From assembly GCA_020137815.1 (NCBI GenBank), contig CM035360.1:1054001-1118000 (forward strand): DNA of 64,000 bases, in the 5' to 3' direction. Shown here piece after piece: positions 1 to 64,000 of this stretch; the stretch's first letter is position 1; each line of letters starts with the position of its first letter. The translations under genes were made by a program, and so were the position numbers. This DNA comes from Hormiphora californensis. Lineage: Eukaryota; Animalia; Ctenophora. The notes under the pieces are model-generated. The model searched no databases, was not told the origin of the DNA, and was given only the letters and a program-made list of their open reading frames with translations.

Positions 1-659
1 CCTTTGCAGTCGAGTACCATCGACCCCGAAGTAAAGATTACCACGTCCCGTGGGAAGGAAATATCAAGAAGTCGGTTGAAGGGGTTAACGTTGAAGTGAC
101 GGAAATCAGCCCAAGGAGTGGAAGAATTCTTACATCTTCCACGTTTGTGGAATTCCATCATGTCACGATTAGACCACTTGAAATCCTTTTTACATCGGGT
201 ACACTTGACAAGCCTCTCTTTGCAGAATTTGTAGAGATGATCGTCCATGAAGGAATATCTCACCATCTTGTAGCACATGGGGCATCGTTCTTTCAGATGC
301 TGGTTAGAAATAAATCGGCCCAAATTCCGATACTGCTTTCTCTCGTTGTAAAGTTTGGAGAACCTATATCTCATAACACTCCTAGGGGTAAACTTCCTCC
401 TCTTCTTCTTCCATCCAGGACATGTTCTGCCTTTGTGTTTTAGAATCAGTTTGTGACACCTCTTACAAGTTTCCGGATCATCCGATTTAGCAGAATCCCC
501 ACCGGTCGTCCCAATAACTGCTGATGTTTTATCATCAACAAATTCTGCGTACTCAGGCGGATATTTCTTGGAGTGAAAGAATCTTCCCAAGGTCGGAAGT
601 TGATCTTGACGATCACTATTCTCGAGGTCAACCTCAATGACCCACTCAAAATTTACCAT
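1..659 (-). CDS. Partial (runs off left edge) zinc-finger / inactive RNase H-like protein, paralog of 3426..7433
   Basis: Manual translation from ATG at 659 is open to base 3: MVNFEWVIEV...CPGWKKKRRKFTPRSVMRYRFSKLYNERKQYRNLGR...ERCPMCYKMVRYSFMDDHLYKFCKERLVKC...FNVNPFNRLLDISFPRDVVIFTSGSMVLDCK. It aligns colinearly with CPRRKGTRKTSPRTIRNYRFSRL...ERCPDCKQWVRYSFMDTHLYEIC...DIVVYTAGSMVMDCK in the 1335-aa ORF. Missing from the ORF track because there is no stop codon in the window. Confidence 0.85.
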   Translation of the reverse strand, partial: MVNFEWVIEVDLENSDRQDQLPTLGRFFHSKKYPPEYAEFVDDKTSAVIGTTGGDSAKSDDPETCKRCHKLILKHKGRTCPGWKKKRRKFTPRSVMRYRFSKLYNERKQYRNLGRFISNQHLKERCPMCYKMVRYSFMDDHLYKFCKERLVKCTRCKKDFKWSNRDMMEFHKRGRCKNSSTPWADFRHFNVNPFNRLLDISFPRDVVIFTSGSMVLDCK

Positions 660-1149
660 GGTGAAGAAAAGTTGTAGTTGCTGGTGATAAGAGCGTATCT
701 ATGGCATGTCCTAAAGTGGAGATAGGAGGTTGAGTTAGAAGTTGATATTGGGTTAAAATTGCAGGTTTTAGTCGACCAAAAAACAACTTTTAGAAAACCT
801 TTCATGTAAGAAACAGTTACAGAAGTTAAAAGATAATCACATTTAGCTCAAATGTTTAGCTTCAAAAATCAAGAGATTTTTCGGATAAAAAATTGAAAAT
901 TAAATGAATCAAATCCAAATCAAGGGTCCGCATCACTCACGTTGATAGGTATCACAGCGATCGCAGTTCAATGAACACCAAAGAAATCGATTACAAATGC
1001 AACCCGTGCTTTTCAGTCATTTTCATTTTCGCCACTCTCCTAAAAACTCAAAAGCAAGCATGATGACAAAACGCAGAAAAGATAAAGCATCTGGAATCTA
1101 ATTAAACATTGAAAGTCGAAAGATCGGATCCTTGTTCATCCCACATTAA

Positions 1150-1599
1150 AGGTTGACAAGATACCTAAAACTTTTCGTATATCGTCTTATTTTGATTTAT
1201 CATTAATTTTCAGCATTTTTTCAGAATTTTTTGTCGGCTAGAAATATGTGCAAAATAGGGGGTCTACTGACAAATGAGTGTGCCTTTTTTAAAATTGATA
1301 CCGTAATATCTCCGGTTCCTGATGAGATACAGAAACCGTTTTGGTAGCGTTGGAAAGGTCTTATTGAGATCAATCCAACGCAACCAAGATCAAGTCTTTA
1401 TCTTTTGAGGAACCGGAAACGTGAATTTCAATTTGCGAGACGCAGTGAGTGTGCCCAGTAAAACCAGTGCTGACAATATCGGTAGACCCCCTATTTCGAA
1501 TTTTTTTCTAGCCGACAAAAAATTCTGAAAAAATGCTGAAAATTAATGATAAATCAAAATAAGACGATATACGAAAAGTTTTAGGTATCTTGTCAACCT
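1150..1599. mobile_element. Non-autonomous DNA transposon (MITE), TTAA target, AGG...CCT ends (Kolobok-like)
   Basis: ~115-bp terminal inverted repeats AGGTTGACAAGATACCTAAAAC.../...GTTTTAGGTATCTTGTCAACCT, flanked by TTAA (1146-1149, 1600-1603). Near-identical copy at 63352-63797. Confidence 0.85.
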
Positions 1600-1668
1600 T
1601 TAACAGATTACTTTTTAAACTTTTTAATTATAAAATAAAGCTACGTAGTTTTTTGCCGAAACTACTAA

Positions 1669-3258
1669 TTAGGAGCCATAAGCCATGGCACGGGAGCAAG
1701 CTGGCCAGTATAACCTCAAACTAAAAAGTTTTTGATAGAATGGGATATTGGCAAAAGATTCGTACGTGCAAGACAACGGATATTCATGTCCTGATTTATT
1801 TAATAGGACTGCGCTGACATAACTAACAAGGGATGGGCTATTTTCATGCGAAACGCAGAATGGTATATCTCTTTGACTAACGGCGTCAAAGGAAATATTA
1901 ACTTTTGGCAGTTGTTCCCAAGCTTCTACCGTAAAGGTCACTTTAACTGCGACACCACAAAATTCTGGAGGATTATATCCACAGTTTTTACATTCTGGAT
2001 TAGGATGTTTATTTACATTTTTACCCAGGACCAGACAGGTTTCTTTAGTGAACGGCAACGTATGTGCAGCGTTGTATGATAGTTCTTTAACGAACAAATT
2101 CTGAGTGTACCATACCACTTCATTCCGATACCATTGTTGGGAATGGCTATACGATATTGCCTGAGGAGTTAGGAAGGTGGGAAAGTAGTCTGCCCCTTCC
2201 AAAACTGCCTCCTCCATTATATTCTTTGCAAAGTATGCACGGATTTTCTGTTGTTGGACGCTTTGGTACTGAAGAATAATACTGTTGAAGATGTTAACAG
2301 CTTGTCGTGAGGTTTTTATTTGAGGATTTTTCTTGATCGAATCGATATCTTCTTTCCAATGTCCACTCATGGATATCGGGAAGGTGGCATCTACCACTGG
2401 CAGTAACCGCCCCACATCTTCACCATCACTCAAACAATCCTCCTCCTCAGACACCTTACTCATATCAGCCAGCACCTGGAATAAAAAACCATAATCATCA
2501 GGAGACACATATGCTTTCAGGATTTCCATTAGTTTTTTGTAGGCCTCTTTATCCAGATTTTGGCAAGTCACTAGAGCTGGCGAGTTTAACAACTGCTTCT
2601 CATCGTTGGTTAGCCTGTGTGGCCGAGGTTTACTTTCAATACCCTCTGCCAGACTCGTGTACAGAGTAGGAATCGAAGTACCGGCTAAATAACTGCAAAG
2701 TTTAACATCCACTTCTCCCATCGGATCACGAGCCATAACGTCACGAATAAGAGCAGATCTCAGCTCCGGAGATTTTCTCTGTAACCCGATATTGAGAGCT
2801 TTAACCAACTTTTTATCAGACCTTTCTTTCACCAAAAAGGCAGCTTCATCAAACATGTACCGGATATCATCAAGAGAGTCCTCAGTCAGGTCGGTACAGA
2901 TATCACAGAAAAACCGGAGGCACTCTTTAGCTATCCATTCCACTTTAAAAGCAATGCTTATTTTGTTGAGATCACGAAAAGTTTCCCTGTTTAGCTGTCC
3001 CTCAACAGAACCGGAGTAGCAACATTCAATAAAACAGTTGACCCCCTCAACCGTGAAATCAACCATGTCCAAGTCTACCAAGAAGTCCTTCTCAGAGATC
3101 TCGGAGATTACTGGGCTGTTCAGGGTCAGGATAAGGGAGTTGGCCTTCACCTCCTCCCCGTTACTAGTCGTAATTGTGACGTCATTGAGACCTTTGTAAC
3201 CGCGGAGCAGACTGCCGAAATTGGTGGGAACACTGATTTGAGGTAATGCAGTAGCCAT
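1669..3258 (-). CDS. BTB/POZ-domain protein (intronless, 529 aa)
   Basis: N-terminal DVTITTSNGEEVKANSLILTLNSPVI...DFTVEGVNCFIECCYSG...LNKISIAFKVEWI fits the BTB pattern. C-terminus not recognised. Confidence 0.8.
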   Translation of the reverse strand: MATALPQISVPTNFGSLLRGYKGLNDVTITTSNGEEVKANSLILTLNSPVISEISEKDFLVDLDMVDFTVEGVNCFIECCYSGSVEGQLNRETFRDLNKISIAFKVEWIAKECLRFFCDICTDLTEDSLDDIRYMFDEAAFLVKERSDKKLVKALNIGLQRKSPELRSALIRDVMARDPMGEVDVKLCSYLAGTSIPTLYTSLAEGIESKPRPHRLTNDEKQLLNSPALVTCQNLDKEAYKKLMEILKAYVSPDDYGFLFQVLADMSKVSEEEDCLSDGEDVGRLLPVVDATFPISMSGHWKEDIDSIKKNPQIKTSRQAVNIFNSIILQYQSVQQQKIRAYFAKNIMEEAVLEGADYFPTFLTPQAISYSHSQQWYRNEVVWYTQNLFVKELSYNAAHTLPFTKETCLVLGKNVNKHPNPECKNCGYNPPEFCGVAVKVTFTVEAWEQLPKVNISFDAVSQRDIPFCVSHENSPSLVSYVSAVLLNKSGHEYPLSCTYESFANIPFYQKLFSLRLYWPACSRAMAYGS

Positions 3259-3425
3259 CTATTGTGCACTAAAAGGGATAGGGGTATGGAGTTAGTAACT
3301 GGAGAGATTTTAAAATGCCGAAAAAAACGAACAAGTTTTAGAAAAAAATTTAAGCCCGTGTCATGCTAAACAATTTTTTTAATAAATCATAAGAAACAAT
3401 TATCACAGATAATCATAGTAATCAA

Positions 3426-6400
3426 TCAGTCACAAATGCACTTCCCTATGCCATGCTTTTTAATCTTTTTAAATTTCCCGACTCTTCCACAAAACCAACA
3501 CCGAACAGGGCGTGATTCACAGTGTTCCTTTTCATGCGTATCCAACGAGATGTGCGACGGCAGAAATTTGTGACAAAAGCGGCAGGAGATAGGAGTTTTA
3601 TCTGCAGAGAACTTTCCTTTGATTTTAAACTTGGACCTTTTGGACCTACGAGCTTTGTTGGACCTACCAGCTTTGCTAGACCCAGCAGCTTTGTTGGGCC
3701 CACCAGCTTTTTGAGATTTAGCTGCTTTCTGAGCCTTGGCTCCTTTCTGAGACGCAACAACTTTTTGAAGCCCACCAGTTTTCGGAGACCCAACAGCTTT
3801 TTGAGACCCAACAGCTTTTCCAGCCCGTCCAGCTTTGCTTCCGATAAACCAGAGCTTTTCTTCTAACCTATCTTTTGGAGGTTTTTTCAAAACTTCCGCA
3901 TATGAAGCAATGCTATTGTTGTCGGGTTCTGGGAGCGTTGAGGGCATTGGGTGAGTGATACACGGCACAGACCGGACCGGCTGACGACGATTCACATTCT
4001 TGACACAAGATCGAACGTGATCCCTCAGCTCATTTTCTGGAAAAAACCGGGAACAAAATCTGCAGGCTTCCTCACTCCACCATGATTCACTGCGGCGACG
4101 CATCAAGGCCGAATACCTCAGGACTGGGTCCAAGAATTCTCCTAAGGCAATCGGGAGAGCCTGGAAATATCGAGTCGGTCGATACTCGGAGTGAATTGTC
4201 CTCAGATATTCAGGTATATTCAAATCTCTATCATTTTCATTGTCTTCCCGTTCAGTATGGCGTCTTTTCTTTTTTACCCTACGTGGAATCTTCGGAAACA
4301 GCCCAGTCCTGCCAACGCACGCAGACTTTTGGTGGGACTCAAGGTTTTCAGCGGCCACTCTAAAACTACAAACGTTACAAATCACCAATCGCATCACACA
4401 GCTTTTCTTCATGTGGTGACCAAGTTGTTTGCAATAAAATGCTTCTCCACAAAATCGACACTCTTCAAAACGATCCAGATCCTCCCACGATTCAGGGACT
4501 CCATCCGAATCAGAACTAGCTCCCGGGGTGTTTTCTGAAGGGTCAGTTGATTCGTTTGCAACCTCATAATGTCTATTGCACGTTCTACGGTGTTCAGGAC
4601 GTTTGTCGAAAGGAATCCAGCGACAACAGATCTGACAAAAGAAATCCCTTTTTCTCGTTGGTCTATCACGTTTTAGAAGGTCGATTTTTCTGGTAAAACC
4701 AATGTGTTTGAAGTTGTAGCCGTTACGCTTTGAAGTAGCAGCTGAACGGGCCAGATTCCTTGCCATCTTAGCCCCTGGAGCTCCTTTTATCATTATTCCG
4801 TTCAAAGTGACATCAACATACTCAGATAGTTTATTCAGTGACCTTACCGTGTTTAGGAGATTGATCGACGTTACTGGTCCTAGCCTTAGGGCTTCTAGAA
4901 CCTGCTTATTTGGAGTCACCATGTGAACTGTAGGACCCACGAGAGAGGGCTGTGAAAGAAGACTTCTTACTGCGAGAAGTACAGCGCACAAGTCTGAACC
5001 AAACCTCCCTGCACCTTTTGGATAAAGTCGTGTGCATGAATATTCTGGTTCTTCACCAGGCCTTACAACCACCCATGCACAGCCACATTTGCAGTCCATC
5101 ACCATACTGCCCGCTGTGTAAACAACTATATCTTGGGAACATGAGGATTCTGGAAGTTGATTAAAGGGACTGACCGTGAAAAGACGAGTGATAAGTTGCT
5201 TCTTGAAAGAACTGGAATGCTTTTTGTGGGGCCGAAGACCATTGTGCCTACGAAGCCATTTAACAGGCATCGTTATTTCACAACAATTTATTTTTCGATT
5301 CGGACAAATCTCATAAAGATGAGTATCCATGAAGGAGTACCTAACCCACTGTTTGCAATCGGGGCACCGCTCATTTAGATTCTCGTTGGTCATCCCGGGT
5401 CTACCGATATTTTGATATTGAGACATCTCGTAACTCAAGCGAGAGAACCTGTAGTTCCGGATAGTTCGAGGGGAGGTCTTCCTCGTTCCTTTCCTCCGTG
5501 GACACCTCTTCGTCCCCCGGTTGTAGCGTGAGGGATGGTGGAGTGACATTGGGAGGTTGCAGTTAGAGCAGATATTAAGCTGTTTTAGAGTGGACGAAGG
5601 TGGCCAGCAAGCCTGAGGAAGGGCTTTCTTCGATTTTATTAATCCACCTCCTTTCAGTTTCGGAGACCCACTCTTTTCACATATGTGATAGGGCATTAAA
5701 GGCCAAGGAACAAACAATAAACATCGTGGACATACAGGATTCCAGATGTGTCCAGGCCAAAAATTGTCACTTTGACTTTGGCGAGAAGATTCACCAGTGA
5801 GCTGAGAAGTTTCATTCTCGGCCACTTTTTCTAAACTTGTAACGAAAGAAAAGAACTGATCTGTAGAATGTGAAGAATGCGAAGGTTTCTGAGACTCAAG
5901 AGCTTTCTGAGGCCCACCAGCCTTTTGAACCTCACCAGCTTTCTGAGATCCAGTAGCTTTCTGCAGAGACCCATTCGTTTTCTGAGACCCACCAGCTTTT
6001 TTAGATTTATCAGCTTTTTGAAGCCCACTACATTTCTGATACTTAGTCTTAGCTGCTTTCTGAAGCCCACCAGTTTTCGGAGACGTAACAGCTTTCTGAG
6101 ATGCAACAGCTTTTTGAGATTTAGCTAGTTTCTGAGACTTGGCTCCTTTCTCAGACTTGGCTCCTTTCTGAGCCTTGGCTGCTTTCTGAGACGGCACAAC
6201 TTTGTTAGAGCTATCAGGTTTCTGAAAGTCATCAGCTTGTTGAGACCCAACAGCTTTTTGAAACCCAACAGCTTTCTGGGATCCACTAGCTTTCTGAAAC
6301 CCAACAGCTTTTTGAAACCCAACAGCTTTCTGGGATCCACTAGCTTTCTGAAACTCATCAGCTTTCTGAGACCCAACAGCTTTCTGAGACGCAACAACTT

Positions 6401-7433
6401 TCTGAGACCCAACAGCTTTTTGAGACCCAACAGCTTCCTGGGACGCAACAACTTTCTGAGACCCAACAGCTTTCTGAGACCCAACAGCTTTCTGAGACGC
6501 AACAACTTTTTGAAACCCAACAGCTTTCTGGGATCCACTAGCTTTCTGAAACTCATCAGCTTTCTGAAGCCCAACCACTTTCTGAGACCCAACAGATTTC
6601 TGAAGCCCAACAACTTTCTGAGACCCAACAGCTTTTTGAGACCCAACAGCTTTCTGGGACCCAACAGCTTTCTGAGGCCGAACAGCTTTCTGAGACCCAC
6701 CAATACCAATACCGTCTTCATCATCATCACGTTCACTACTAGGATTCCTATCCTTTTCACATTTGTGATAGTGCATCATAGGCCAAGGAACAAACAAAAA
6801 ACATCGAGGGCATACAGGATTATAGTTATTTCTAGGCTGAGATTTGTCAACGAGTTGAGGTTTTTGTTGAGACCCACCAGCTTCCTGAGACTTGGCAACT
6901 TTTTGAGACCCTTGAGTTGCATTTTGAGACCAACTCGATTCACCAGTCTTTTGAGAAGATTCACCAGTCTGTTGAGAAGATTCACCAGTCTGTTGAGAAG
7001 ATTCACCAGTCTTTTGAGAAGATTCGCCAGTCTTTTGAGAAGACTCACTTGTCTGTTGAGAAGATTCACTTGTCTTTACGTTGCAAGATGTTTTACTTTT
7101 GTTATCCGGAGGAACGAGGTGGTTCTTCTGGACAATTTGGTTCATTTTTTCATCATCATTGCCCTCCTCAGGATCACCAATTTTACATCGATGGGGCTGT
7201 TGTGACGAAACCAAAGTTGAGCAGTATGGGCATTTTGGAAGGATAATTTCCGGACACCTTTTAATGTGGAGCTCCTGGAGATTCTTGTGCGAAGGTAGCA
7301 GTTTACTGCAATGGGGACAGAAAACTGCATTGGTCGGCTGCTCATTTTTACACTTGTGTTTACGCAGTTTTTTCAGTGTCCTGAATTCCACAGGACAACT
7401 GGGACATTTGTGTTTCATTTCCAAATGAGGCAA
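3426..7433 (-). CDS. Multi-zinc-finger (C2HC/TRAF-type) protein with GSQKAV repeats and a catalytically substituted RNase H-like domain
   Basis: 1335-aa uninterrupted ORF with about ten CxxC...H...C clusters, hexapeptide and heptapeptide repeats, and an RNase HI-like segment at ~4735-5132. The true start may be the ATG at 7506 (MATTTYLEPRQ...) if one extra A near 7437 is an assembly error; otherwise MKHK. Confidence 0.85.
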   Translation of the reverse strand: MPHLEMKHKCPSCPVEFRTLKKLRKHKCKNEQPTNAVFCPHCSKLLPSHKNLQELHIKRCPEIILPKCPYCSTLVSSQQPHRCKIGDPEEGNDDEKMNQIVQKNHLVPPDNKSKTSCNVKTSESSQQTSESSQKTGESSQKTGESSQQTGESSQQTGESSQKTGESSWSQNATQGSQKVAKSQEAGGSQQKPQLVDKSQPRNNYNPVCPRCFLFVPWPMMHYHKCEKDRNPSSERDDDEDGIGIGGSQKAVRPQKAVGSQKAVGSQKAVGSQKVVGLQKSVGSQKVVGLQKADEFQKASGSQKAVGFQKVVASQKAVGSQKAVGSQKVVASQEAVGSQKAVGSQKVVASQKAVGSQKADEFQKASGSQKAVGFQKAVGFQKASGSQKAVGFQKAVGSQQADDFQKPDSSNKVVPSQKAAKAQKGAKSEKGAKSQKLAKSQKAVASQKAVTSPKTGGLQKAAKTKYQKCSGLQKADKSKKAGGSQKTNGSLQKATGSQKAGEVQKAGGPQKALESQKPSHSSHSTDQFFSFVTSLEKVAENETSQLTGESSRQSQSDNFWPGHIWNPVCPRCLLFVPWPLMPYHICEKSGSPKLKGGGLIKSKKALPQACWPPSSTLKQLNICSNCNLPMSLHHPSRYNRGTKRCPRRKGTRKTSPRTIRNYRFSRLSYEMSQYQNIGRPGMTNENLNERCPDCKQWVRYSFMDTHLYEICPNRKINCCEITMPVKWLRRHNGLRPHKKHSSSFKKQLITRLFTVSPFNQLPESSCSQDIVVYTAGSMVMDCKCGCAWVVVRPGEEPEYSCTRLYPKGAGRFGSDLCAVLLAVRSLLSQPSLVGPTVHMVTPNKQVLEALRLGPVTSINLLNTVRSLNKLSEYVDVTLNGIMIKGAPGAKMARNLARSAATSKRNGYNFKHIGFTRKIDLLKRDRPTRKRDFFCQICCRWIPFDKRPEHRRTCNRHYEVANESTDPSENTPGASSDSDGVPESWEDLDRFEECRFCGEAFYCKQLGHHMKKSCVMRLVICNVCSFRVAAENLESHQKSACVGRTGLFPKIPRRVKKKRRHTEREDNENDRDLNIPEYLRTIHSEYRPTRYFQALPIALGEFLDPVLRYSALMRRRSESWWSEEACRFCSRFFPENELRDHVRSCVKNVNRRQPVRSVPCITHPMPSTLPEPDNNSIASYAEVLKKPPKDRLEEKLWFIGSKAGRAGKAVGSQKAVGSPKTGGLQKVVASQKGAKAQKAAKSQKAGGPNKAAGSSKAGRSNKARRSKRSKFKIKGKFSADKTPISCRFCHKFLPSHISLDTHEKEHCESRPVRCWFCGRVGKFKKIKKHGIGKCICD
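5900..6700 (-). repeat. Coding minisatellite, 18-bp unit encoding GSQKAV/GFQKAS variants
   Basis: Repeats of agacccaacagctttctg on the + strand. A second block lies at ~3640-3820, and a 21-bp TGESSQQ/K repeat at ~6935-7070. Confidence 0.9.
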
Positions 7434-8264
7434 TTTAGTTTATCATAGAGTTAAGTTGGGGGATGGTGAAGGACTGCCTTGGCTCCAGATAAGTAGTGGT
7501 CGCCATTTGTAGCTAGAGAGGGTTATATGTTGGGCTGTTAAATAATTGGGCATTTGAAAAAATAGACAATTAGTACATCGAATTTTCACCCGAATGCATA
7601 GATGTCTTTTTGGAAAAAGTATCTGAGCGAATGCCGTTAGAATGTGTTTAGAATTCACCCCCGGGGATAATTAGTGGAGAATAATATTATTCAGTAGGTT
7701 AAGGAGCAATATAAAATGAACCCACACAAACTCTACAAGTAAACAAAACTCCAAAACTCTAATCTGATAAAGAATTATCTTCCTAAGGTAAAGAAGAATA
7801 TTATTTATAACTCAGAGAGGCAAGGGTCGAAGCTACACACACATGAGAAAGCTCTGGAAACACAATGTGTGCGTGGTAGAAATTGAGAGAGAGATAGCAG
7901 TAAGGGCGACATTCTGAGTGAATATATATCTGGAATCGAGCCAACGTATCGACATTTGAAGCAGAGAATAACAGACTATACTCTATCACATCAAACTGTA
8001 TGTAAAATGTTTCCATCTTGGGCAAAGGTGTGGTTTGAGACTTGAATATAATGGGCACTACATCAAGTATGGGATGAATAACAACATGATCGATATAGTT
8101 AAGAAGCGACGAAAGCTACAGAACAAAGAGTAGTGTACTAGTGTCTGTCAACTGCAGCAGTACAACAAAATTTACACATCAAATACATTCTGAATCGAAA
8201 ATTGGGTCTGTTTTTTCAGTAGACCGAATACAAGTAGAAGTTTCAAATTAATCGATTGCAGATT

Positions 8265-11200
8265 TCAGGTATAGTAAGACCATCGTTGAGATGGTAAGCT
8301 GCACGCTGAAAATCTAAATCAAAATTTGTGTAAAAACATATCTACACGAACAAACAAACAATCTATCTCACAAACCTGTTGAGTTGATTTCCTCCATCTT
8401 TGCGAGTTGAGCCTCCAACTCCTCGATCCTCTTGGCCTTGCCAGCCCACAACTCCCTTTCCCGATCCAATACCTGCTGAATCTCCTCACACTCCTTCTCT
8501 TTGTTCGTCATCAGGGAGTCAAACTGAAACAGCAAACAGTGTCAGATAAATGATCTTCAAATCACACTTGAATTGTACAATTCGTGCCGGTACATCACAC
8601 AAATACCACTCAAGTCACGATTCATAATTTCTATCCAATATCATTTGCATTCACAATATTCTAATTATGTACAGTCGGACCCCGATTTACCGGGATGCTC
8701 GGGGGAAAGGGTTTTGCCCGGTAAATCGGGGTGCCCGGTATATCGGGGTCAAATACCGTTAATTTCCTATATCGGGGGAATTTTATCCTCCCGGTAAATC
8801 GGGGTTCCGGTAAATCGGGGCCCGGTAAATCGGGGTCCGACTGTACCTGTAACGATTTGTTCCGTACAATGTCAGACAACTCCTCCTGTAACTCATCAAC
8901 CTGGGAATTGTAATTAAATTAATTAATTAAATTGGGTAGAGTTATCAGGGTTTCACAAGAGTTATCATTTTCAGAGTGATATATTGTCAAATTACTATTA
9001 TTACTACTAATTACTACTAATATTATTGACCTGTTTATTCTTCTCCAACAACTGAGCCTGGACTTTAGTTAACCGCTCCCTCAGGTCAGCAGCTGATTCG
9101 TTCTCTTTGTTGGAGTCACCAGTAGTAGGTGTGTTCTGGGAGGTAGAGAGTACCTGGTAGAGAGGAAGAGAGGGCATGCAGGGAGGGATAAAGATATTTG
9201 TCATGCGAATTGAGATCAATGAAGCCATGCAAAGCCGTAGTATAACTTAGCTGTCCCCAAATTTAACGCAAGATGAAATATTTCCAGTAGATAATAAAAA
9301 TGGGACTAAAATCATGAGAAATTCCAAGTTTTGGTTGTTCCACATACCTTCTGAAGGGCCTGTAACTCAGATTTTAACTGGGAAATAATGCCTGCCATTT
9401 CTCCCACGTGACCCTTCAGTTCTGCTATCTCCACATCCTTTTCCTTTACACACTTCTCCGCAGTGACCAGCTTCCGAATTGCTACTGATTTCTCATTTTG
9501 TAGCTTTTCTAACTCTTCCGAATGCCTTGAACCTGGGATATATAATAGGATATATAATAGGGGATAATATAGGATATATAATAGGGGATAATATAGGATA
9601 TATAATAGGGGATAATATAGGATATATAATAGGGGATATATAATAGGGGAGGTGTGTGTGTGTCAGGAGTGGTGACAGTTGAGGTGTAAACTGTAAACCC
9701 ATAATTAGGAGCAGCCACAAATGAGGTGCTGAGTATGCACATAGTTGATAGTAGAGTCGATAACTATATCGACCCCTCCCAATTGTTCCAGTTTTTGTCG
9801 AGGCTCCAAACAGATGTAACAAAAAATGGAACAATTGAGAGGGGTCGATGTAGTTATCGACTCTACTAACAGGAATGTAGTGTATCAAACATTGTTACAG
9901 CAACCATTATCCCCAAATTAAAACTTACCAATGTCATTCTGTTCCAGTTTGTCTTTGGTCATCTGCTCAATGATAGCTATCTTCTGAGTCAGTTCTGCAC
10001 TTCCCTGTTGACACCTAACTTCTAGCTGGTCTACCACCGTCTGTAGTTTCTCAATCTGTGCCGGGAGAATTGTTTGATATATCGAATTGTTAGACTACAA
10101 ATTGAAACACTCGTGTTCCTTGAGCATCCCAATAAATCGGGGTCCGACTGAACTAACATCCACTGCCAACCGGTGAAATTTTACCTGTCGTGCCTTGTCC
10201 AACTTTGCATCATTACATTCTTTCTCCCAGAATGTTGTGAGTCGTGTAGCCTCCTCTACATCCTTGAACAGGGTGTTAACCTCCCCCTCCTTCTCTATCA
10301 GCTGTTTAGCATACCTGCAGGTGAAGAGGAGTACATTGGTTACAAGCACAGTGATTCACCGGACTCCGCGGAGAAAGGGTTTCAGCCCGTTAGATCGAGG
10401 TCCAGTTAACAATTTGGGAACGATTGGGTCACAGATAACCTGATGACTGAGTACTTTGAACCCGTTTAAACAAGTAATTTTAGAACAAATTTAAAAGTTT
10501 TAGACCCCATTTCTTCTAAAATTACCTATCTTTCTCCTCATTGCTATCATTATACAGCTGCTGAGTTGTTTTCAGCTCCAGCTTGGCATGGAACAGTTTC
10601 TGATCAGTTTCCTCCCTGAACCCAGAGTATTCCTCCCGGCATTTCTTGTATTCTTCCTTGGACCGTTGGATTTCTGCTTTCAAGTTCGCCACCGTCTCTT
10701 CAAGTTCACGCTCCGCGGTTCCTGGTGTGAAATATGTATTGGGGTAGTATGGACTAACGAGTGGCAACTAAAAATTGTCACTAATTTCAAACGACTGTAT
10801 AATTTTTCCCTTCTGAGATAAAGCTTCGAGCCAGTGATAGAAAGATTTTTCAGACATTTTTAAATCAGAAGAATGAGAAAGTTCATTTTCAATGCGATAT
10901 CGCATCATTTCCTCTTGACCCACCAAAGCATGTTATAGTACGTGAAATCTACACACTTTTCTAGTTTTCAGTTTAACACCTACGACCTAGTATTATTCTC
11001 ATGTAGCACAAGTCATGTATGCCATATATATTTCGATCTTCAACATTTAAATATTCCAACTTCCTGAGAATAGCAAGCAGGCACGTGTACCTGGTTTTTC
11101 ACACTCCTTCTTTAGGTGTAGCAAGCAGGGGAAAACTCGGTTTACTATCAACTGTGTTAGAGCTATCATTCAACGTTGCCATGGCGACAGTGTAGCAAGC

Positions 11201-16300: not shown

Positions 16301-19300
16301 GGAAATCCCATGTCCCGTTTTTTTGACCAAATATGGCATTTTGCACGTGCAGGTTTAGAGGTGGAGTACTATAGCTGGAGTTGGGCCAGGGGTGGGAGCC
16401 GTTGCCAAGGATTGTTACCAATGTACTGCAGCTGCACGTGCAGCTGTTCTTGCGTTGTTTATGTGTCACTGTTCCAGCTATTATGCTCTCTTCAACAACC
16501 GTTGATATACGATTACGAAAGCGACAATTGGAGATCTCACCGCCATTCTCTACTTTTCCATACACTGAGGGGTTTAAATACAGCAACACCAAGAGAACTG
16601 AGGTCTGAGAAGTGCAGAGACAACGAAAAAGACGTTGGAGGTTAGACAGAACCGGTGATCAATCCCAGATGAATACTGCAAACAGATGAAACGCGAGGAG
16701 TTCTAAAACTCGCAGCGATCCCGCCTGAGCTCCTTTTACGGTACGGTGCATGTCAACAGTTCGACTGGTGATGTCAGTGTTCCCTAATCCAGCAACCATT
16801 TCCCAGAAATTCGCCCGTAGGGCGAACGGGTTTACTAGTAGTATCATATAGTATGAATGAATATATTATTTTAGCAGCAATTAAATGGGAGGATACTTCG
16901 TTGATCATATGGACCCCATGAGGGCATAGGCCAGTCATATGACGTCGATATATCGCTGAAAAAGGAAGTAATTGATCTAAAAGCGATTCCACTTCCAGGG
17001 CCCTCCAATGGGTCTCTACAACCACCAAAAAAATTTACCGCGGGTACCGCGATGGAGAAATCGGTCATTTCCGGGTTTATTTTGCACCTGCATAAATATA
17101 GTACAGGACGAATGCGATATACGGTAAAAACCGTCTTTGGAAACAAGTAGAAAAAGAAATCAGGGCACTAAAGTGTGTAGCGTCCTCGCATTAGTGGGGG
17201 TAGGTGCTGGAATTAAGTCTCTATCTTATCAGGTTAATTAGATAATTGGATAATTAGATGCGCACATAGCCGTTTTATGGTTATACGGTAAAAACCAACT
17301 TTGGAATGGAGTAGAGAAAAAAACCGAGGGTACTAGAGTGATCAGCGTCCTCGAATTAGTGGGGGTATGTACCAAAATTAAGTTCCTATCTCATCGCGTT
17401 AATTAGATAATTGGATAATTAGGTATGCGCATAACCGTTTTTAGGTTACATGGCTATAGCCACTTAGGAATGGTTTAGAGACTTTTCATTGGTGCCATTT
17501 TGTAGGCAATAGCCAAGTTATTGGGGGTCGACGTCGGACTTTTAAGCTCTATATTCAACCGTTTAGCCGTTATTTGGCTTTAAAGGTGCTCAAAGTGAGC
17601 AAAAAAGCGGTAAAAAGACCGATAACTTGGCTATTGCCTACAAAATGGCACCAATGAAAAGTCTCTAAACCATTCCTAAGTGGCTATAGCCATGTAACCT
17701 AAAAACGGTTATGCGCATACCTAATTATCCAATTATCTAATGAACGCGATGAGATAGGAACTTAATTTTGGTACTTACCCCCACTAATTCGAGGACGCTG
17801 ATCACTCTAGTACCCTCGGTTTTTTCTCTACTCCATTCCAAAGTTGGTTTTTACCGTATAACCATAAAACGGCTATGTGCGCATCTAATTATCCAATTAT
17901 CTAATTAACCTGATAAGATAGAGACTTAATTCCAGCACCTACCCCCACTAATGCGAGGACGCTACACACTTTAGTGCCCTTGATTTCTTTTCTACTTGTT
18001 TCCAAAGACGGTTTTTACCGTATATCGCATTCGTCCTAGCCTATATTTATGCAGGTGCAAAATAAACCCGGAAATGACCGATTTCTCCATCGCGGTACCC
18101 GCGGTAAATTTTTTTGGTGGTTGTAGAGACCCATTGGAGTGCCCTGGAAGTGGAATCGCTTTTAGATCAATTAGTTCCATTTCACAACGTCATATGACTG
18201 GCCTAGCATGGTAATTTGTAAATTCATAATACTCATCAGCGCATCCCTGTGATGGTTTTCGCAACTGTTGAGAGAGAAAGAAAGAAATGGGGAAATAAAT
18301 AGAGAAATGGAGAGAGAAGCATAGTGTCCTCTTGCGTCTTGTTGAATCATGTGACTATAATATATGAGATCCTCTATTCCGTGTCGATGCTCTATTCCGC
18401 GTATTATTCTGTTAGACTCTATGAGGGGACTCGTTCGTTACGTTGCAGTTCGTTTCAGTTTTGCTTGTCTCAGACACCGATAAGGGCTCTTCCCCTCACT
18501 AAAATGCAATTTAATCCTGCATTAATACCAATATTCGAGCACACTTCACATTTTGATTAAGGCTAGGAGTAGTGTGATTAGTGATACCCCTGTCGACGCC
18601 GTGTGGCACTCGCCGCTCAGTGTCGCCAGTGGTTGACCACGACCTTCCTGGAGCGTATGAAGTAACATGCTCTGCATAAACTGATTGGTGGGTGGCCTTG
18701 CTACGGCAGAGTGGTGGACGTGCTGGGGCGCCTAATAAGCGTGTTCGGTGCGGCCTCTACTACTTTCGGGCAGGTCATCCTCCAGACGCAGTAATCAAAA
18801 ACAAACAAATACATAATAATTAAAATCAGGACCTAAGTAAACAATTTGGTTGAATTGCTGCCTTGAGCGGCCTACTTTCTCCTAAAAACACATAAAAACG
18901 TATACAGTACTTTGTACTAATTCCTAACCTGCGAAAGGTTATCAGGGTAGATGATACGTTGTTTCAGGGTTTCACGTGCTGTTTGAAGCTTTTCCGTCAT
19001 CTTACACACGTCATTGTGAAGGTGGGGGCAGAACACCGATCTGGGTTTAATACACGACCCTGGAGAAAGAGAGAAGAAAACAGTTAACCTGGTCTTGAGA
19101 TGACCAGGTACCCAAAAACATGGCTAACACTGCTGAGTGTTCGCCAGGTTTTGGGTACTCGACACCATTTCCCTCCCAAACACCCGCGTCCGGTTTTCAA
19201 AAAACGTGGAATATGGATGACAATGACAACTTTATGCGCGCTATAGATTTCGCGCGCTCCCTACATGTCGTTCTCAGCATGTACCGATTTCGGTGGGAAT

Positions 19301-31542: not shown

Positions 31543-34500
31543 ATGTCACCTGTTCTTCGTTACACGATTATGACAATTTATGGACTTTGTTTGATAATAA
31601 TTTTTGTTCGAGATTGGCATTTTCCAATGGTCACGTCTCAAAGTTACAACCTCAAATTTTGAGATCGCCCAGAAGCCAGACCTTTACTTGTAAGTCTTAC
31701 CACTTGTTTTGTTTGACAATATGAAGTGCTGAAGTGATACTATTTTTGCACTCTGTCTCTACGACATATCTGGAACTATGATAGTCTAGGGGGGGGGGGG
31801 GGGTAGTCTAGGGGGGGGGGGCTTTTTATTGCCACACACGGTAGGACAGGATTAAAGTTTACAAGTTTACAAGTTTACAAGTTTACAATTAAAGTTTTAT
31901 TTATAAAGAAACAGGCCTTCCCTGAATGGGTCCACCTAAATAAAATCAAGTTGAAAAAACTATCCCTTCACACTCACACTCATCAGCACAGCACAGCACA
32001 TTGAGGCGAAAGGTCATTTGGAAGTGGCGGGTACCCTCTGACTGGAGGACGATCGTGAAATCCTGTCAAGTAATTGCCCAATGATGATTTGAACTGATTC
32101 AAGCTCACACAAGAATTGACAGCAGCAGGTAGAGTGTTCCATAAATGAGCTGCTCTTGGGCCAAATGAGCAGTGAAATTGATTAGCTCGTTTCGTTTCTG
32201 CTCTATAGGGGTAAGGTGGTGGGACTATCCGCATACCCAGTCTAGCGTGCTGTTGAAATACTAGGTTGGCAGAGTTAGGTACAAAACCATGAATCGTCTT
32301 CCACACATGTATCAGAATGTAGCGCTGTCTCCGACGCTGAAGGGACATAAGATTGAGCAATTTCAGTCTATCCCAATAGTCATGACCCTGCATACCATCA
32401 AGACGTCTGGTGAAACAACGTTGGACATTCTCAATAGCCTTGATATCACAGGATTATAAAGATAACTTTTCAGCGAGTCTCCCAGGGCAACCAAGTTACG
32501 GTTCCTGTTGGAGGAAAATCTAAAATTTGGATCCCACCTTAAGAAGCTGAACACAGAGCTGTTTGATAAGAGAGAGGGGTACCATGAGGAGTTCATAGAT
32601 ACCTTACCGATAATTAGGGATGATATTCGGGATTCTGCCCCTGAACAGTGAGTTACAATGTTTCTTGGGGGGGGGGGCTTCTAACACGATGCAGAGTGCT
32701 GACCCACTGACATCCCGATCAGGTGTGCGAACAAGACATACAAGAAGAGTACGACACGAGTTTCAGTGATTATCAACTATCACAATGAACTCTTGTCCCT
32801 TATGCTCCGATCGATTTACACTGTCCTCCTGTCAATACCGGAGGAGAATCTTGAGGAACTGATTTTAATTGACGATGCTTCGAATCTTACAAGCCATTGT
32901 AAGTCTAGAACTCTAGGGATTCTTCATTATACCATCAGCTGTTCTTTCTTTCAGATGATTTGACTTTTGTGGAAGACCTAGTTAAGTTATTTGTTGTTCC
33001 CGTGAGACACTTCCGATTTGAGGAGAATTTGGGGCTGATCTACAGTCGACGATTCGGATGTATCAAAGCTACTGGTGATGTAAGAATATCAAATTGAAAA
33101 CTCGTCTAATATCATGTATTTATATGTTCTAACCCTCCTTTACAAAATGTGTCGTGGGGCACAGAGAGAGAGGGGGTCATGCCTAATGAATATTTTTCAG
33201 GCGGTGTTAGTCCTTGACAGTCACATTGAGGTAAAGCCAGGGTTTCTGGAACCACTGTTAGAGATAGTTGACAAGAACTACAAAGTAATCGCTGCACCCG
33301 TCTTCGATTTTTGGGACACTTTTAATGACAATGTAGGTTTCATGAGAACATACCACTTTTTCTCATTTTTCGATGTCATTGCCAGCCGTTCGAAATGAAT
33401 TTTTACTTTTCAGTATTGGTCGTATGACTGGATGGCCCTGGGTTATGACCGCTACCTAACATGGATCTTCCACGGTGTTCCAAAGACACCGGAGCCCTTC
33501 GAAACCCCCGCCATAATGGGAGGGGCGTTCCTGGCTTCGAAGCGGTTCCTCGAGGAGATTGACTACTTCGGGGCGGCCATGGAGGGTTGGGGCTTTGAGA
33601 ATATCGAGCTGACTCTGAAAACATGGAACTGCGGTGGGAGTGTGTATTATGTTCCCTGTTCAAGAGTGCTACACTATGCTGCGAGGAGGTCACCCATGAA
33701 ACATGGAGACAGGAAAACTCCAAAAAATATTTTTCTTAATGCTCTCATTGTAGCCAAGGTCAGTACAGACTAAAATAGGAATCCCTACTTACATACCAAC
33801 AACCTCCATACCAACATCCCCCATACCACATAGGTATGGAGGGTGTTGGTATGGAAGCGTTTTGTGAGGTTCAGTGACCTCCATACCAACTCATAGATTA
33901 TATTTAGAGAGTTGGTATGGAGGGTATTAAAGTCTCTATAACGCTTCCATACCAACTCGATGCGGCCATACCAACTTGTGAAAATCCTTGATATCTGGGT
34001 GTATGGCACTGTCAATTAGAGCTGTCCCGATGTACGATTCAATTACACGATTCATATCACGATACGGTATTCAAGTGGCTTCGCTTTGGGTGGGGTGTGC
34101 CTTTCACGTACTGAGTGTGTTTAGTTTAATGCAATACAAACATAAGATATTACAGGAACTACTACAACGGACGACGCGATAATCCTCCATACATCCACCC
34201 ATACATCCACCCACTGGCCACTATAGCCATTCTGATCTCCCCGACTGTCCTCGAGTCATCAGAAATGTGCTCCTCAACCTCTCTCTTCTAATCTTCCCGA
34301 TTCCCACTTCTTCCAAAATCCCTCCACGTCGGAGACACTTCAAGATCCGGCACGATACCCAGGACAGCGATACCTCTCGCATCTGACTCTGTGTTCGGTA
34401 CCAATAAGGATTAAGGGTACCTGCACTGGGTATCGTGGATGTCGGTTGGAGTAAGACTGAGTTACTGGGGTCTCCCCTATATTTTCCATCAAGGCTAGCA

Positions 34501-36195
34501 TGAAAATACTATCAGAATTATAGACCAAGATGATGGGGAGAACTCAGTATCCCAGGTTCCTAAGACGTCTTTAACAAACACACAAACGTAAGATATTACT
34601 GTGGTCAAGGATTTTCACAAGTTGGTATGGCCGCATCGAGTTGGTATGGAAGCGTTATAGAGACTTTAATACCCTCCATACCAACTCTCTAAATATAATC
34701 TATGAGTTGGTATGGAGGTCACTGAACCTCACAAAACGCTTCCATACCAACACCCTCCATACCTATGTGGTATGGGGGATGTTGGTATGGAGGTTGTTGG
34801 TATGTAAGTGTGGAACCCTAAAATAGTATCAGTGCCATAGCTTAGCGAATGATATATATGTTGCAAAAAAATAGATTTGTTGATCAAATGATATAATATC
34901 CAGGAACCGACCGAATCAGGAGATACTGGTCCCTGATTGGCTGATAAAAAGTCACGTGACCTAAATAACGAGTTCTGATTGGTTGTTTACTTGTGTCGGC
35001 CGGTTCAACCAGAACTGGTTATTTAGGTCATGTGACTGGTTATCATCCAATCAGGGGCCAGTATTTCCTGATTCGGTCGGTTCCTGGACTTATACCCTTT
35101 CAGAGTCTGTTTGGAGAGGGTATTTCAGAGGACGTAGTGAAGGCACATGGAGGCACACAGCAGTTGACGATGGAAAAATGGGCGGCAATCAACCAAACTA
35201 AACAGATAATGAAGTCTTGTCCCCGAGATTTCGAGTAAGATCTATGATACATATTGTTACAACATGTTATGTTAACATGTTATGTTTTTATGTTTATCTA
35301 GTATTCATTTTTCCGGATTTTTCTAACATTTAGTTTTCAGATGGGTTAGAAGTCGAGTGACCCCTGAAATTGAATCATATGGGCCGGAGACAAGCAAGGC
35401 ATATGGGGTAAGCACTTTCAGTGAATGCTTGGGATTAACTGCTATCGATAGTCGATACCAGCGATAACGTCGGGACTGGGATGGGTGGTCGTAGAAAGTA
35501 GAAACCTAGCATGTATCAAGATCATTTCGCTTCTTTCATTTCGCTTCTTTCATTTCGCTTCTTTCATTTTAACCTCTAATTTTCTAGGTATCTGACCTCG
35601 AAATGGGCTACTGTTTGTCAAGAAAACAAGATCACGAAACGAAACATATTTTACCAATAATAGAGGCTTGTATTGCCCTTGATGGCCGACCGAAGAGGGA
35701 CTCAGCTCGGTTGACAATCTGGGACGAACTCCGAATATATGACAGGCTTTGTCTCGACTGGGGATGGGGTGAAAATTGGCTTTTGTTTGACAGCTGCCAT
35801 AAACTGGGTGGAGCCCAGACAACGAAATACAATTCAAATCTAAAGGTTTGTGGTACATTAAAATCCACTACGAGATTCCCATCTCACGAATTATAGGACA
35901 GTCATTTCATTCACTTTCATTTAGCCCCCAAGCGGCGACAAACCCACTCGGTAAACGGGCTACTAAAAAATAGAAGGGCCAATATTTGAAACTGTATATT
36001 AATTCATCTTTAACAATGACAACACAAATTCTTTTGCAGACATTAACAAGTGGTAACGGAGAATGGTGCATGGTCCACAACATCACCTCAAACGTATTTG
36101 TGAGGGAATTGTGCGAAAAGAAAGACTCACTGACAAGTGATTTGAGATTCATATCCTTGCAATTTATAACTGTTTATGATTCTTCGATATTTTGA
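31543..36195 (+). CDS. GALNT: Polypeptide N-acetylgalactosaminyltransferase (GT27), multi-exon
   Basis: Exons encode VSVIINYHNE..LMLRSIYTV...ELILIDDAS, GLIYSRRFG, DxH motif VLDSHIEVKPGFLEPLL, TPAIMGGAF, WGFENIELTLKTWNCGGS...VPCSRVLH and a C-terminal ricin-B-like region. The candidate signal-anchor exon starts at ATG 31543 and needs one homopolymer correction near 31603. Confidence 0.88.
31855..32447 (-). mobile_element. 5'-truncated CR1/L2-type non-LTR retrotransposon in GALNT intron
   Basis: IENVQRCFTRRL...YWDRLKLLNLMSLQRRRQRY...LWNTLP...FKSSL (post-RT region). 3' tail of (TTGTAAAC)n. 9-bp TSD ACAGGATTA at 31846-31854 and 32448-32456. Confidence 0.9.
33787..34809. mobile_element. Non-autonomous TIR element with ~205-bp near-perfect arms containing CCATACCAAC repeats
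   Basis: 33787-33991 is the reverse complement of 34605-34809. Lies in a GALNT intron. Confidence 0.8.
34901..35086. mobile_element. Two fused, oppositely oriented copies of the CAGGAACCGACC MITE
   Basis: Forward copy 34901-~35005 joined to a reverse partial copy ending TTCGGTCGGTTCCTG. Confidence 0.75.
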
Positions 36196-36729
36196 TGATA
36201 TTTTAAATTGATGTTTATTGTTTAACCCGGCCAAACTGAACTATCTAATTGTTCAAGCTCTTTGAAATCTTGAGCTTGCAATGAATATCAACTTAATATC
36301 ATCCAGTCACTGTACTGGACACTGGACAGTGATAGTCTGGCGTGTTGACGATCAATCCCCGGCCTCGCAACTCGCAAGCGGTGCCCGGCAGACGGCAGTG
36401 GGCACCTGTTTAAAAAAAAGAGCCTAGAATCGCCAGTACAAAGTCTTAGATTGCGTCAAAGTAGGCTTCTGTACTTAAATAGAGGAGACTGCAGTCAAGC
36501 GGACAGTCCTTCCGATAGTAAAGTGTAGCGTAAAGCAAGATTTTTGAATTTGTAAAAGGACCACAAAAAAATGTTCACCGCGAGCAGATAAAAAGTTTTC
36601 TGAAATCGCAAATAGGCCGCGCGGCGCGGGGGCGAATTTTGGTTGAAATGCGCTGCATACCAAAATCGAAGCGCGCGCGTTTTGCCGCAGTTTTCCAGAA
36701 ACGAAAAAAACAGAATCGAAAAAGTGCCA

Positions 36730-38160
36730 AGTCTACACTGGTGGTAAAACGTGAACATCTGGCTAGAGCTAAGGAGCTATTCAATGACACAGATTTGAAT
36801 CTGACGGTGGAAGGTGCGAAGCATCTTGGAGCGGCGATTGGGACCATGGAATACAGCTGGGAGTACACTGAGGATCGAGTAGCGGAGTGGACTGACATGG
36901 TTGAAAATTTAACTGAAATTGCCAGTAGCCATCCACACCTCGCCTACTCGAACTTCATCTCATCACTGAAATTCAAATGGGTGTATCTCCAACGTACCAT
37001 CCCTGACTCGGCAGACTCTTTTCAGAGGTTGGAAGATGCGATCAGGAACAGACTGATACCCAAGCTGATAGGAAGACCATGTAGCGATATGGAGAGGAAG
37101 ATCTTCGCCCTTCCTATCAGAGAGGGAGGACTAGGTTTAGATAACCCAGTTGAGACGGCCCCGATCTTCTACAAAATTCAGAGCATGTCACTGAGCCACT
37201 GGTGTTAAACATACTTGAATTGGATGAAAACAAGAAGACAATCCATGAAGTTGAGAAAGAAATCGCAGAGAGGAGGCTTGAATGCAGTGTCGAGGAGATG
37301 AAGAGACAGAAGGCGCTAAGAGAGGCAGTGTGTAAAGATGAAGAAAAATGGACCAGGACATTTCTTCTAAACATGGAGACGGGAGCTTCGTCTTGGCTCT
37401 CTGCCCGGCCCTTGGAGATTTTCAACAGAGAACTATCCAAATCAGAGTTCACAGATGCGATGTGCCTCAGGTATGGCTTTGAAATCAACGGCCAGTTCTC
37501 TGAATGTGTATGTGGAAAACAGAATGGGGCAGACCATGCCCTGAGCTGTAGCACTGGCGGGTTTACTATCCTGCGACACAACGAGATTAGAGATACCCTT
37601 GCAGATATTATTACCCATGCAGGATACAAGGGTGTTGAAATTGAGAAAGTGTTGCAGCCAGTTAACCCAGATGACTACCCCCGAAGTGTCAATACAGCAC
37701 CTGATGCTCGCAGTGACGTGTATGCCATTGGGTTGTGGAGAGGACTACAGGGGGCCCACGTGGACGTTGCAGTGTTTCATCCTACTGCACCCAGTTACAG
37801 AGGAAAAGACCCAAAATCTCTGTACAAAATGAATGAAAGTCGGAAGAAACGTGATTACCAACAAAGAATCAGAGAATCGGAGAGAGGGGCTTTCACCCCG
37901 TTTGTTATGGCTACTTCCGGAGGTTCCGGACTAGAGGCAGAACGACTAATCAAAAAGCTCGCTTCACGCATCTCTACCAAACACAAGGATAAATATGCTG
38001 AAGTGATTAATTTCCTGAGAACGCGGATACGATTCTGTCTCCTCAGAAGTACTCTGGTCTCACTCAGGGGCACGAGGAAAAAGTTCACGACTCCACCACC
38101 CATTGCAATGTGTGATTTTACTGACTGACTTTTTATTTATAATATTTATTGTTTATTTGA
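36730..38160 (+). mobile_element. 5'-truncated RLE-type non-LTR retrotransposon (CRE-like)
   Basis: End of RT (KHLGAAIGT, LPIREGGLGL), CCHC finger CVCGKQNGADHALSC, RHNEIRD, and restriction-like endonuclease (RSDV...VDVAV...KKRDY...FTPFVMATSGG). One frameshift near 37190; T/A-rich tail. Confidence 0.88.
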
Positions 38161-53223: not shown

Positions 53224-54049
53224 AGAGGGATGGAGAGAAAGAGAAAAGAAAAACGAGAGATGTGTATTGAAAAATAAACGAGATATGCCATTATTTATGA
53301 CAGTAGCCTAAAGGTTTTACCCCCGTGACACCAAATGGGCCCGGGCATCCAAACTAATTTATTTAATTGGTTTTTGGACTAAATTGAGTAACACACTTTT
53401 TCACAATCCAGACCCCTACGGATCAGTGTTTGGTGTCGTGTTGAGTGACAACTATCTCTGAGATAGTTTTGTGTGTCCTAAATCCTCGAATTATGTCAGG
53501 GGGCAACACACAGGGGGCAACACACAGGGGACCCGGTATTACATGTCCGGGTATTGAAATGATAGCAGCAGGAGACTCGCTGATAAATCAGGTTACACAA
53601 TCACTATATACACATTAAATTGGTCATTAGGACTATAAAAGTAATAAGTTAGATTATAAGGTTAAAATCATTGTCATAAGAATTAAATCGGGTAAAACAG
53701 TTTCCTCTGTACCCCCTTATTGATATTAGTATAGTCTTCAGCAGACAAAATGAAAGGCGGAGCCGAATATAGCGGATGGAGACTCGCTGATTGAATTTAG
53801 ACTATTATCTAACCCCTCCTCTCTCTCTATCGCACACACACACGACCCCCCCCCCCTCTCTAGCTCTCACACTCACCCGACCATGCTCTCTCATGTCCCT
53901 TGTGTTACTTTTCTCTGCCCCGCCGAGGGCCCTCCCCTCCCAAAATGACCGTTGCATAATGCGTGTGTTTATCACGCGAGAATATGAGAGAGAAAGATAG
54001 AGAAAGAGATAGAGATAGAGAGAGGGAGAAAGAGAGAGATAGAGAGAGG

Positions 54050-54125
<76 letters not shown>

Positions 54126-63797: not shown

Positions 63798-64000
63798 TTA
63801 ATCTTCCCGTGACGTCATTTTACCTGATTTCTCCTCCCACTTGTTGTAACTCAACAACCTCCCCATATATAGGTTGGTGATAGTGGCTACGAGGATGAAA
63901 CAGGGAAGTGTGACGGGAGGATTTACCCAGAAGCAAGTCAATCTATAACAAACCCGCCCTCGTTCAGATGTGCTTCGTCAAGGTAGGTATTGAGTTATTA

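Follow-up and report, generated by a model that had tools for sequence, protein, structure and literature searches.

The window, a 64,000-nucleotide stretch of the Hormiphora californensis contig CM035360.1, contains MITE-like palindromes and microsatellites along with an MFS gene and with transaldolase and S9 peptidase genes that are split by introns. On its minus strand, at 7433..3426, lies an intronless open reading frame of 1335 codons, P0001, that is composed of C2HC zinc fingers, basic S/Q/K repeats, and a LINE-type RNase H. The initial annotation had described this frame as intact, and it is, though it starts with TTG; the first ATG is codon 6 (at 7418), and the start of the ORF is ambiguous. 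Just upstream ends an ATG-led frame of 23 codons in another reading frame (7435-7506, minus strand), which directly follows a pyrimidine-rich stretch ending in AG and could represent an upstream ORF, the real beginning of the gene, or an error of assembly. A tandem paralog, P0004 (3..659, minus strand), runs off the start of the window just past the first RNase H strand. Between the paralogs, on the same strand and 167 bp 3′ of P0001, is an intronless BTB/POZ gene (1669-3258; PF00651, E 6.9e-6). Two X7 RNA contigs match this BTB/POZ gene without differences, its higher contig depth suggests several copies, and 5′ of its ATG is a candidate pyrimidine-AG motif like that of trans-spliced operon genes. 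Elsewhere in the window, the MITE-like palindromes (1146-1603, 63352-63801, and 8669-8846) have very high read depth, and large inverted repeats with internal tandem arrays (16927-18205, 33776-34820, 42776-44173, and 49011-58194) are likely foldback-type elements. Two frames, at 36534-38125 (plus strand) and 31986-32453 (minus strand), resemble fragments of non-LTR elements and have no Pfam match at E 0.01; the first reads like the end of an RT followed by a restriction-like endonuclease, and we take it to be CRE-like.

All features of P0001 are on the minus strand. The protein has 13 CxxC motifs, nine of which fit the pattern CxxC-x(9-16)-H-x(2-6)-C, in keeping with the "about ten" zinc fingers first claimed, and its computed net charge is +117. 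It carries a 21-nt repeat array (6937-7077), an 18-nt coding tandem repeat of about 45 SQKAVG-like copies (5886..6696), and a finger duplicated at 5662-5769 and 6742-6849; these repeats have no counterpart in the relative P0003. Directly N-terminal to the RNase H domain is a conserved basic segment with a TRAF-like C2HC finger (aa 647-720, 5274..5495), which is present in every family member covering that region and whose parts are identical to P0003 at 21/31 and 25/34 positions. The linker that follows (aa 750-763, 5145..5186) starts with R-x-F-x-V, which aligns with the pre-RNase H linker of the nearest LINEs. The RNase H-fold domain itself, assigned from homology and a predicted model, spans aa 764-900 (4734..5144), and the RNase H motifs quoted in the initial annotation for 4735-5132 (codons ~768-900) are present in the order given there. 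C-terminal to the domain are four C2HC fingers, including a TRAF-like pair (aa 933-1143, 4005..4637), with weak likeness to XAF1/TRAFD1/CEP104, and a terminal pair with the C2HC pattern (aa 1284-1334, 3432..3584); the part of P0006 that matches this last pair scores E 0.0013 against zf-TRAF, below the Pfam cut-off. Matches of the P0001 fingers to zf-TRAF, CEP104_ZnF, and Znf_XAF1_N are every one under the Pfam cut-offs, and the ESM Atlas gave the finger region 0.92 (164/256 features) with a recognition of 2030, where its mark is 2300.

Sequence comparison confirms homology between aa ~764-900 of P0001 and the RNase H found in LINEs of the endonuclease-RT-RNase H type, and the non-LTR assignment made at the outset is borne out by HMMER, by a LINE-only profile, and by hhalign. 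We searched 1.84e9 representatives exhaustively with an HMMER profile built only from host sequences, and seven proteins had E<=1e-3: P0006, four RNases H, one TRAF-finger protein, and one repeat protein. The four RNase H domains were the best matches outside the family (E 3.7e-6 to 1.6e-4, profile positions 94-261); three of them come with RT and/or a C-terminal CCHC knuckle, as in LINEs, and the fourth groups with these three. A second profile search had at least 119 further or repeated PF00075 proteins among the matches listed, many of them endonuclease-RT-RNase H ORF2s. We then scored the host protein with a profile of 120 of 121 LINE RNase H domains and no host sequence (P0010 was left out as too short), a set that favours near relatives because its rows were collected with a profile containing host rows. 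With this profile, aa 760-907 of P0001 scored 42 bits and E. coli RNase HI 39.6 bits; the excised domain scored 47.4 bits, whereas the highest of 2000 shuffled versions scored 7.2 and the reversed sequence –0.2. Removing the original matches from the profile barely moved the domain score (41.4), and hhalign gave the domain a probability of 97.9 (E 3.4e-13). Neither P0001 nor P0003 nor the excised domain gave a PF00075 match at E<=10, and a sequence search of the PDB with the domain returned no RNase H. By contrast with these Pfam and PDB searches, LINE sequences do reach the domain, and in our sequence comparisons it is reachable only through them.

The RNase H fold was also seen in an AlphaFold2 model built on a LINE-containing alignment. 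With a 58-row alignment the model had a pLDDT of 87.8 and RNase H topology, although it leans on the LINE RNase H rows and is not independent of them; from the two host sequences alone the pLDDT was 34.5, and Foldseek returned no match. When the 58-row model was used, RNases HI and HIV RNase H ranked at the top in Foldseek, and VIA-align superposed it on human RNase H1 with a Z of 16.0 and an rmsd of 2.4 over 128 residues. More generally, Z was 15-16 for RNases H1, about 8 for Argonaute and NurA, and 6-6.7 for Prp8. Sequence homology and this model, which rests on the LINE rows, together give the domain the five-strand, four-helix order of RNase H. Between the first two strands is a D-C-K-C-G-C hairpin (aa 780-785, 5079-5096, minus strand) that is the same in P0001, P0003, and P0005 and could be a putative new metal site; D780, C781, C783, C785, and C816 are common to P0001 and P0003.

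A LINE-type origin of the domain is well supported by its sequence relationships. When eight ORF2s of the nearest clade, full-length or partial, were made into a profile, it matched aa 764-900 of P0001 only (38.4 bits, with the next match at –2.6), and the absence of RT and endonuclease claimed earlier thus holds against an ORF2 profile. The neighbors of P0001 are the BTB and MFS genes, and neither P0001 nor an adjacent ORF has an APE endonuclease, an RT, or a CCHC knuckle. The linker at aa 750-763 was likely captured along with the domain, judging from its alignment; 13 of 16 residues at aa 750-765 are identical to P0003. The domain aligns without gaps to the LINE rows where E. coli RNase HI has a 12-residue insert, that is, the basic protrusion is missing, and P0007, P0008, P0014, P0015, P0017-P0019, and P0023 rank 1-8 of the 120 LINE rows against the host-only profile. 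RNase H is a feature of the I-group clades of non-LTR elements (in the available part of PMC4640811). A quick tree of 123 rows placed the host pair within a clade of 10 LINE rows (SH-aLRT 98) on a host branch 2.46 long, while a more careful tree of 34 rows, with 24 other LINE rows picked by hand and E. coli left out, gave the placement of the host pair support of 88/71 only. Both trees lack cellular eukaryotic RNase H1 and draw on a LINE set biased toward near relatives, and AU tests did not reject pairing the host sequences with a Bolinopsis LINE pair or with insect LINEs (p 0.24 each). The donor placement suggested by the quick tree is therefore tentative.

To read the catalytic positions, we aligned the domain to the 120 LINE RNase H rows and to E. 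coli RNase HI. The D-E-D-H-D set, complete in 117 of the 120 LINE rows, reads A-D-P-(K/gap)-R in P0001: D10 is A774 (5112-5114), E48 is D814 (4992-4994), D70 is P841 (4911-4913), the His position is lost near K883, and D134 is R892 (4758-4760). The alignment thereby upholds all four of the DEDD changes first proposed (D>A, E>D, D>P, and D>R). The His loop had been described as gone; the His is indeed lost, but the loop is merely one residue shorter and keeps glycines G884 and G887. P0003 reads A-D-E-(K/gap)-R, the first catalytic Asp is Ala in P0005 and Ser in P0004, and P0006 has Glu and Arg at the last two Asp places, so the change of D70 to Pro is particular to P0001, its relatives P0003 and P0006 carrying Glu there. 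Of note, in DNA runs X1 and X5 a haplotype at 4911-4923, near P841, differs at five consecutive third codon positions, four of the five changes being synonymous. The equivalents of W120, S71, Q72, N130, and E131 are likewise changed in P0001 (P0003 has Asp at the E131 place), and T9, G11, G21, A51, G129, A137, and core leucines remain. Overall, P0001 keeps 24 of 52 LINE consensus columns and, among columns with at least 90% conservation in LINEs, 9 of 24 (T, G, S, G, A, L, G, A, and A). Arg or Lys is found at or beside the old active site at R810, K843, K883, R892, and R896, and both P0001 and P0003 have Arg or Lys at the old metal site or next to it. Where a formerly invariant position carries a new residue, P0001 and P0003 have the same one in 11 of 15 cases, no more than the domain-wide identity of 68%, and this does not support special constraint on the face of the old active site. 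The first Asp of RNase H bridges both metals. Because the first and last Asp are gone, a two-metal site should not form, and from the sequence we predict with near certainty that the domain does not cleave.

P0001 does not stand alone: by sequence, it is a member of a small family, with a tandem paralog in the window and relatives in a second organism. P0004 is 44% identical to aa 647-782 of P0001 (E 9e-28) and has the basic segment, the finger, and the first RNase H strand. Word-index searches with aa 620-960 and aa 640-930 as queries returned P0003 (877 aa) as the one relative among 1637 candidates and P0005 (365 aa) as the one relative among 1936. The EukProt labels of these two proteins have an sb/number form, and we presume that both come from the gene models of the ctenophore Pleurobrachia bachei. 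P0003, whose frame is intact, is colinear with P0001, with 50% identity over aa 618-1333 and an N-terminal finger also in common. It may be a paralog rather than an ortholog of P0001, because contigs of organism B encode both P0003-like and P0001-like versions of the same stretch (two loose ends, read by hand). P0005 ends and P0006 begins within the RNase H domain, each is about 87-88% identical to P0003, and they are possibly broken copies or incomplete records. Bolinopsis microptera, whose proteins are in the database (e.g., P0067), gave no family member in the word-index and HMMER searches or among the best 120 of 307 matches, and a scan of metagenome contigs gave 233 pattern matches and no confirmed relative. 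As far as the searched collections show, the family appears to have a narrow range.

Conservation across the family is uneven. Between P0001 and P0003, the RNase H domain is identical at 92 of 135 positions (68%), the fingers at 49-74% (25/34 and 37/60 beside the domain), and the linkers at 17-22% (5/29 and 25/115). In addition, four DNA runs yielded 71 differences at 4690-5160, 40 of them listed; the listed differences comprise 23 synonymous and 17 nonsynonymous changes on 116 and 352 sites, respectively, and no indels, giving a pN/pS of 0.25 (p 1e-5) that is rough in that it pools alleles, orthologs, and paralogs, scores two-change codons twice, and ignores transition bias. Split by organism, the same rough ratio was 0.31 for the B rows (18 synonymous, 17 nonsynonymous) and 0.18 for the A rows (9 and 5). 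The contrast between domain and linkers and the low ratio point to purifying selection. The LINE-derived RNase H lies in frame within an ORF that is not that of an element, and we consider it highly probable that the captured domain has been domesticated and belongs to a host gene.

What the captured domain does is less firmly indicated. Our best explanation, to which we assign a probability of about 0.45, is that a dead LINE RNase H is predicted to act as a non-cutting binder of nucleic acid coupled to XAF1/TRAFD1-like fingers. An I-group LINE would have contributed its RNase H region, in frame, to a C2HC-finger gene, in what we infer to be a single capture event. Catalysis would have been lost before the gene duplicated, with the fold retained, as none of the four copies that cover the first Asp retains it and the last Asp is Arg in three of three. 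Arg and Lys at the old active site, together with the conserved upstream basic segment, would then hold an RNA:DNA hybrid or another duplex, and the zinc fingers around the domain would recruit protein partners. Fingers of the XAF1/TRAFD1/CEP104 type have a role in ubiquitin-linked signaling, and those of P0001 would link the domain to ubiquitin-type signaling or turnover. Binding is the best reading of the Arg/Lys at the old metal site and of the conserved basic segment, by analogy with dead RNases H that can stay binders: engineered D10R/E48R RNase HI is a dead hybrid binder used to map R-loops (in part of PMC6870988), and the inactive RNase H domain of Prp8 retains RNA binding (in part of PMC5603734).

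Several observations stand against a binder. The P0001 domain is without the basic protrusion, which RNases H in isolation seem to require in order to bind; protrusion-less domains such as that of HIV-1 are inactive when isolated, the rest of RT providing the substrate contact (both in the available text of PMC3443672). The net charge of the domain (+6) is unexceptional among LINE RNases H (mean –0.4, sd 4.3, with 12 of 120 as high or higher), and the aligned equivalents of W120, S71, Q72, and N130 are changed as well. The roles put forward in the initial annotation (hybrid binding, R-loop sensing, and retroelement surveillance) are conjectural. Coupling to XAF1/TRAFD1-like signaling is further weakened by the finger assignment, which in sequence comparisons falls below both the Pfam cut-offs and the Atlas mark. 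A more specific version of the binding reading seems to us improbable: that the protein is a natural, cleavage-dead sensor of the RNA:DNA hybrids formed as LINE reverse-transcription intermediates, with XAF1/TRAFD1-like fingers marking these for shut-down, and so a comb-jelly restriction factor built from a retrotransposon and expanded to a small family.

A close rival, though a less probable one, agrees that the domain is domesticated and dead and sees the fold as a scaffold between the fingers, either structural or for protein interactions, with no specific binding of nucleic acid, as in the connection or tether RNase H of retroviruses. It stays close because the protrusion is missing, the charge is ordinary, and conservation of the new residues does not exceed that of the domain overall. 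The positions that were kept are mostly glycines and core residues (9 of the 24 highly conserved LINE columns), and the fingers resemble the protein-binding fingers of XAF1, TRAFD1, and CEP104. However, the very basic character of the whole protein, the replacement of acidic or polar active-site residues by Arg/Lys in both P0001 and P0003, and the conservation of the adjoining basic segment in all copies argue against a scaffold and in favor of a binder.

It is considerably less likely that a low-copy mobile element carries the gene as cargo, or that the gene derives from a non-autonomous LINE now decayed, with selection acting for the element rather than the host. The paralog, the BTB gene, and P0001 are intronless and form a tight same-strand cluster, the read sets contain several related copies, P0005 and P0006 break inside the domain (as broken copies would, or incomplete records), and ESM Atlas leads under 0.9 include clusters with RNase H and C2H2 in diatoms and Euglenozoa. 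Yet no RT, endonuclease, integrase, or transposase is near the ORF, and we found no LTR and no long terminal or inverted repeats flanking it in the window. In run X5, contig depth summed to 149-844 across the ORF, to 78-349 in the region upstream, and to 3.7e5-8e5 for two MITEs; the depth over the ORF is thus similar to that of its flanks and about 1000-fold below that of the nearby MITEs, by a crude measure in which depth is not copy number. This makes P0001 unlikely as a high-copy element. Contigs of organism B cover all 30 bins of positions 1-9000 of the window in short pieces, none of which spans two genes. A dead RNase H without RT would bring no benefit to an element, and the paralogs are 44-66% diverged with their frames open.

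We regard it as very unlikely that the domain kept a weak or altered nuclease activity or binds metal through leftover acidic residues or the D-C-x-C-x-C hairpin. D814 is left in P0001, P0003 is acidic at two catalytic places (with Glu at the D70 place) and has Asp at the E131 place, and the Asp and four Cys at 780, 781, 783, 785, and 816 are in both proteins; against this, the first Asp is Ala or Ser in four of four copies, the last is Arg, and D70 is Pro in P0001. Equally hard to credit is a relic, unexpressed or in decay, formed when part of a LINE landed in frame by chance: the ORF start is ambiguous and the two RNA-labelled contig sets have no contig over P0001 or P0004 (X7 has parts of the BTB gene and X10 repeats only, and such absence of cover is no evidence), but the frame is open for 4 kb, synonymous differences are in excess, the domain is far better conserved than the linkers, and the catalytic columns were lost selectively.

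We found no literature on such a fusion or on a domesticated LINE RNase H, although the supplements of transposon-domestication surveys could list such genes. The term "RNase H" has no occurrence in the main text of PMC12129022, which in the part available describes LINE protein co-option as rare and non-LTR co-option as unelucidated, nor in the available part of PMC10027918, on transposon-derived factors in ctenophores. Domestication and dead RNases H are thus known as kinds, and what appear to be new are RNase H as the donor part and the architecture. The locus offers a sequence-supported case in which only the RNase H of a LINE, catalytically disabled and conserved by selection, sits within a zinc-finger protein, likely in an animal lineage among the earliest to branch; the narrow database range limits its general importance. 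If hybrid binding is true, the domain would be a naturally occurring equivalent of the engineered dead RNase H probes, and a small construct (about 280 aa) would be available for studying retrotransposition or R-loop sensing in non-bilaterians. If the domain is only a scaffold, it still shows a route by which a LINE enzyme fold enters a host protein.

Among known systems, the ORF2 of I-group non-LTR elements (APE endonuclease-RT-RNase H-CCHC) matches the P0001 domain in fold, spacing, missing protrusion, and upstream linker motif; unlike that ORF2, P0001 is without D-E-D-H-D, endonuclease, RT, and CCHC knuckle, and C2HC fingers flank its domain. Named LINE co-options include L1TD1 and Lyosin-type proteins, which derive from L1 ORF1p, and the ruminant fusion BCNT p97, which derives from RTE-1 ORF2 (in the available part of PMC12129022). 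As in these genes, a LINE coding piece lies within, or has become, a lineage-restricted host gene (same part of PMC12129022), but their donors are ORF1p or another part of ORF2, whereas here it is RNase H alone, dead, and in an invertebrate. The Prp8 RNase H, the retroviral tether, and engineered D10R/E48R RNase HI share with P0001 a fold that was kept and a catalysis that was lost, and in Prp8 and the engineered enzyme the dead fold is used for binding or structure (in parts of PMC5603734 and PMC6870988). Each differs from P0001 in turn: Prp8 is far more distant by structure (Z 6-6.7 compared with 15-16 for RNases H1), the retroviral connection or tether stays inside RT whereas the P0001 domain sits among zinc fingers, and the engineered enzyme keeps the basic protrusion that P0001 is without. 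Finally, proteins of the XAF1/TRAFD1/CEP104 type have tandem C-x2-C-x11-H-x3/4-C fingers with TRAF-like C-P-x-R links that are also found in P0001. The P0001 matches to them are below the curated cut-offs and include none to the XAF1 C-terminal domain, and in contrast to the listed clusters of this type, which are without an RNase H domain, P0001 has one.
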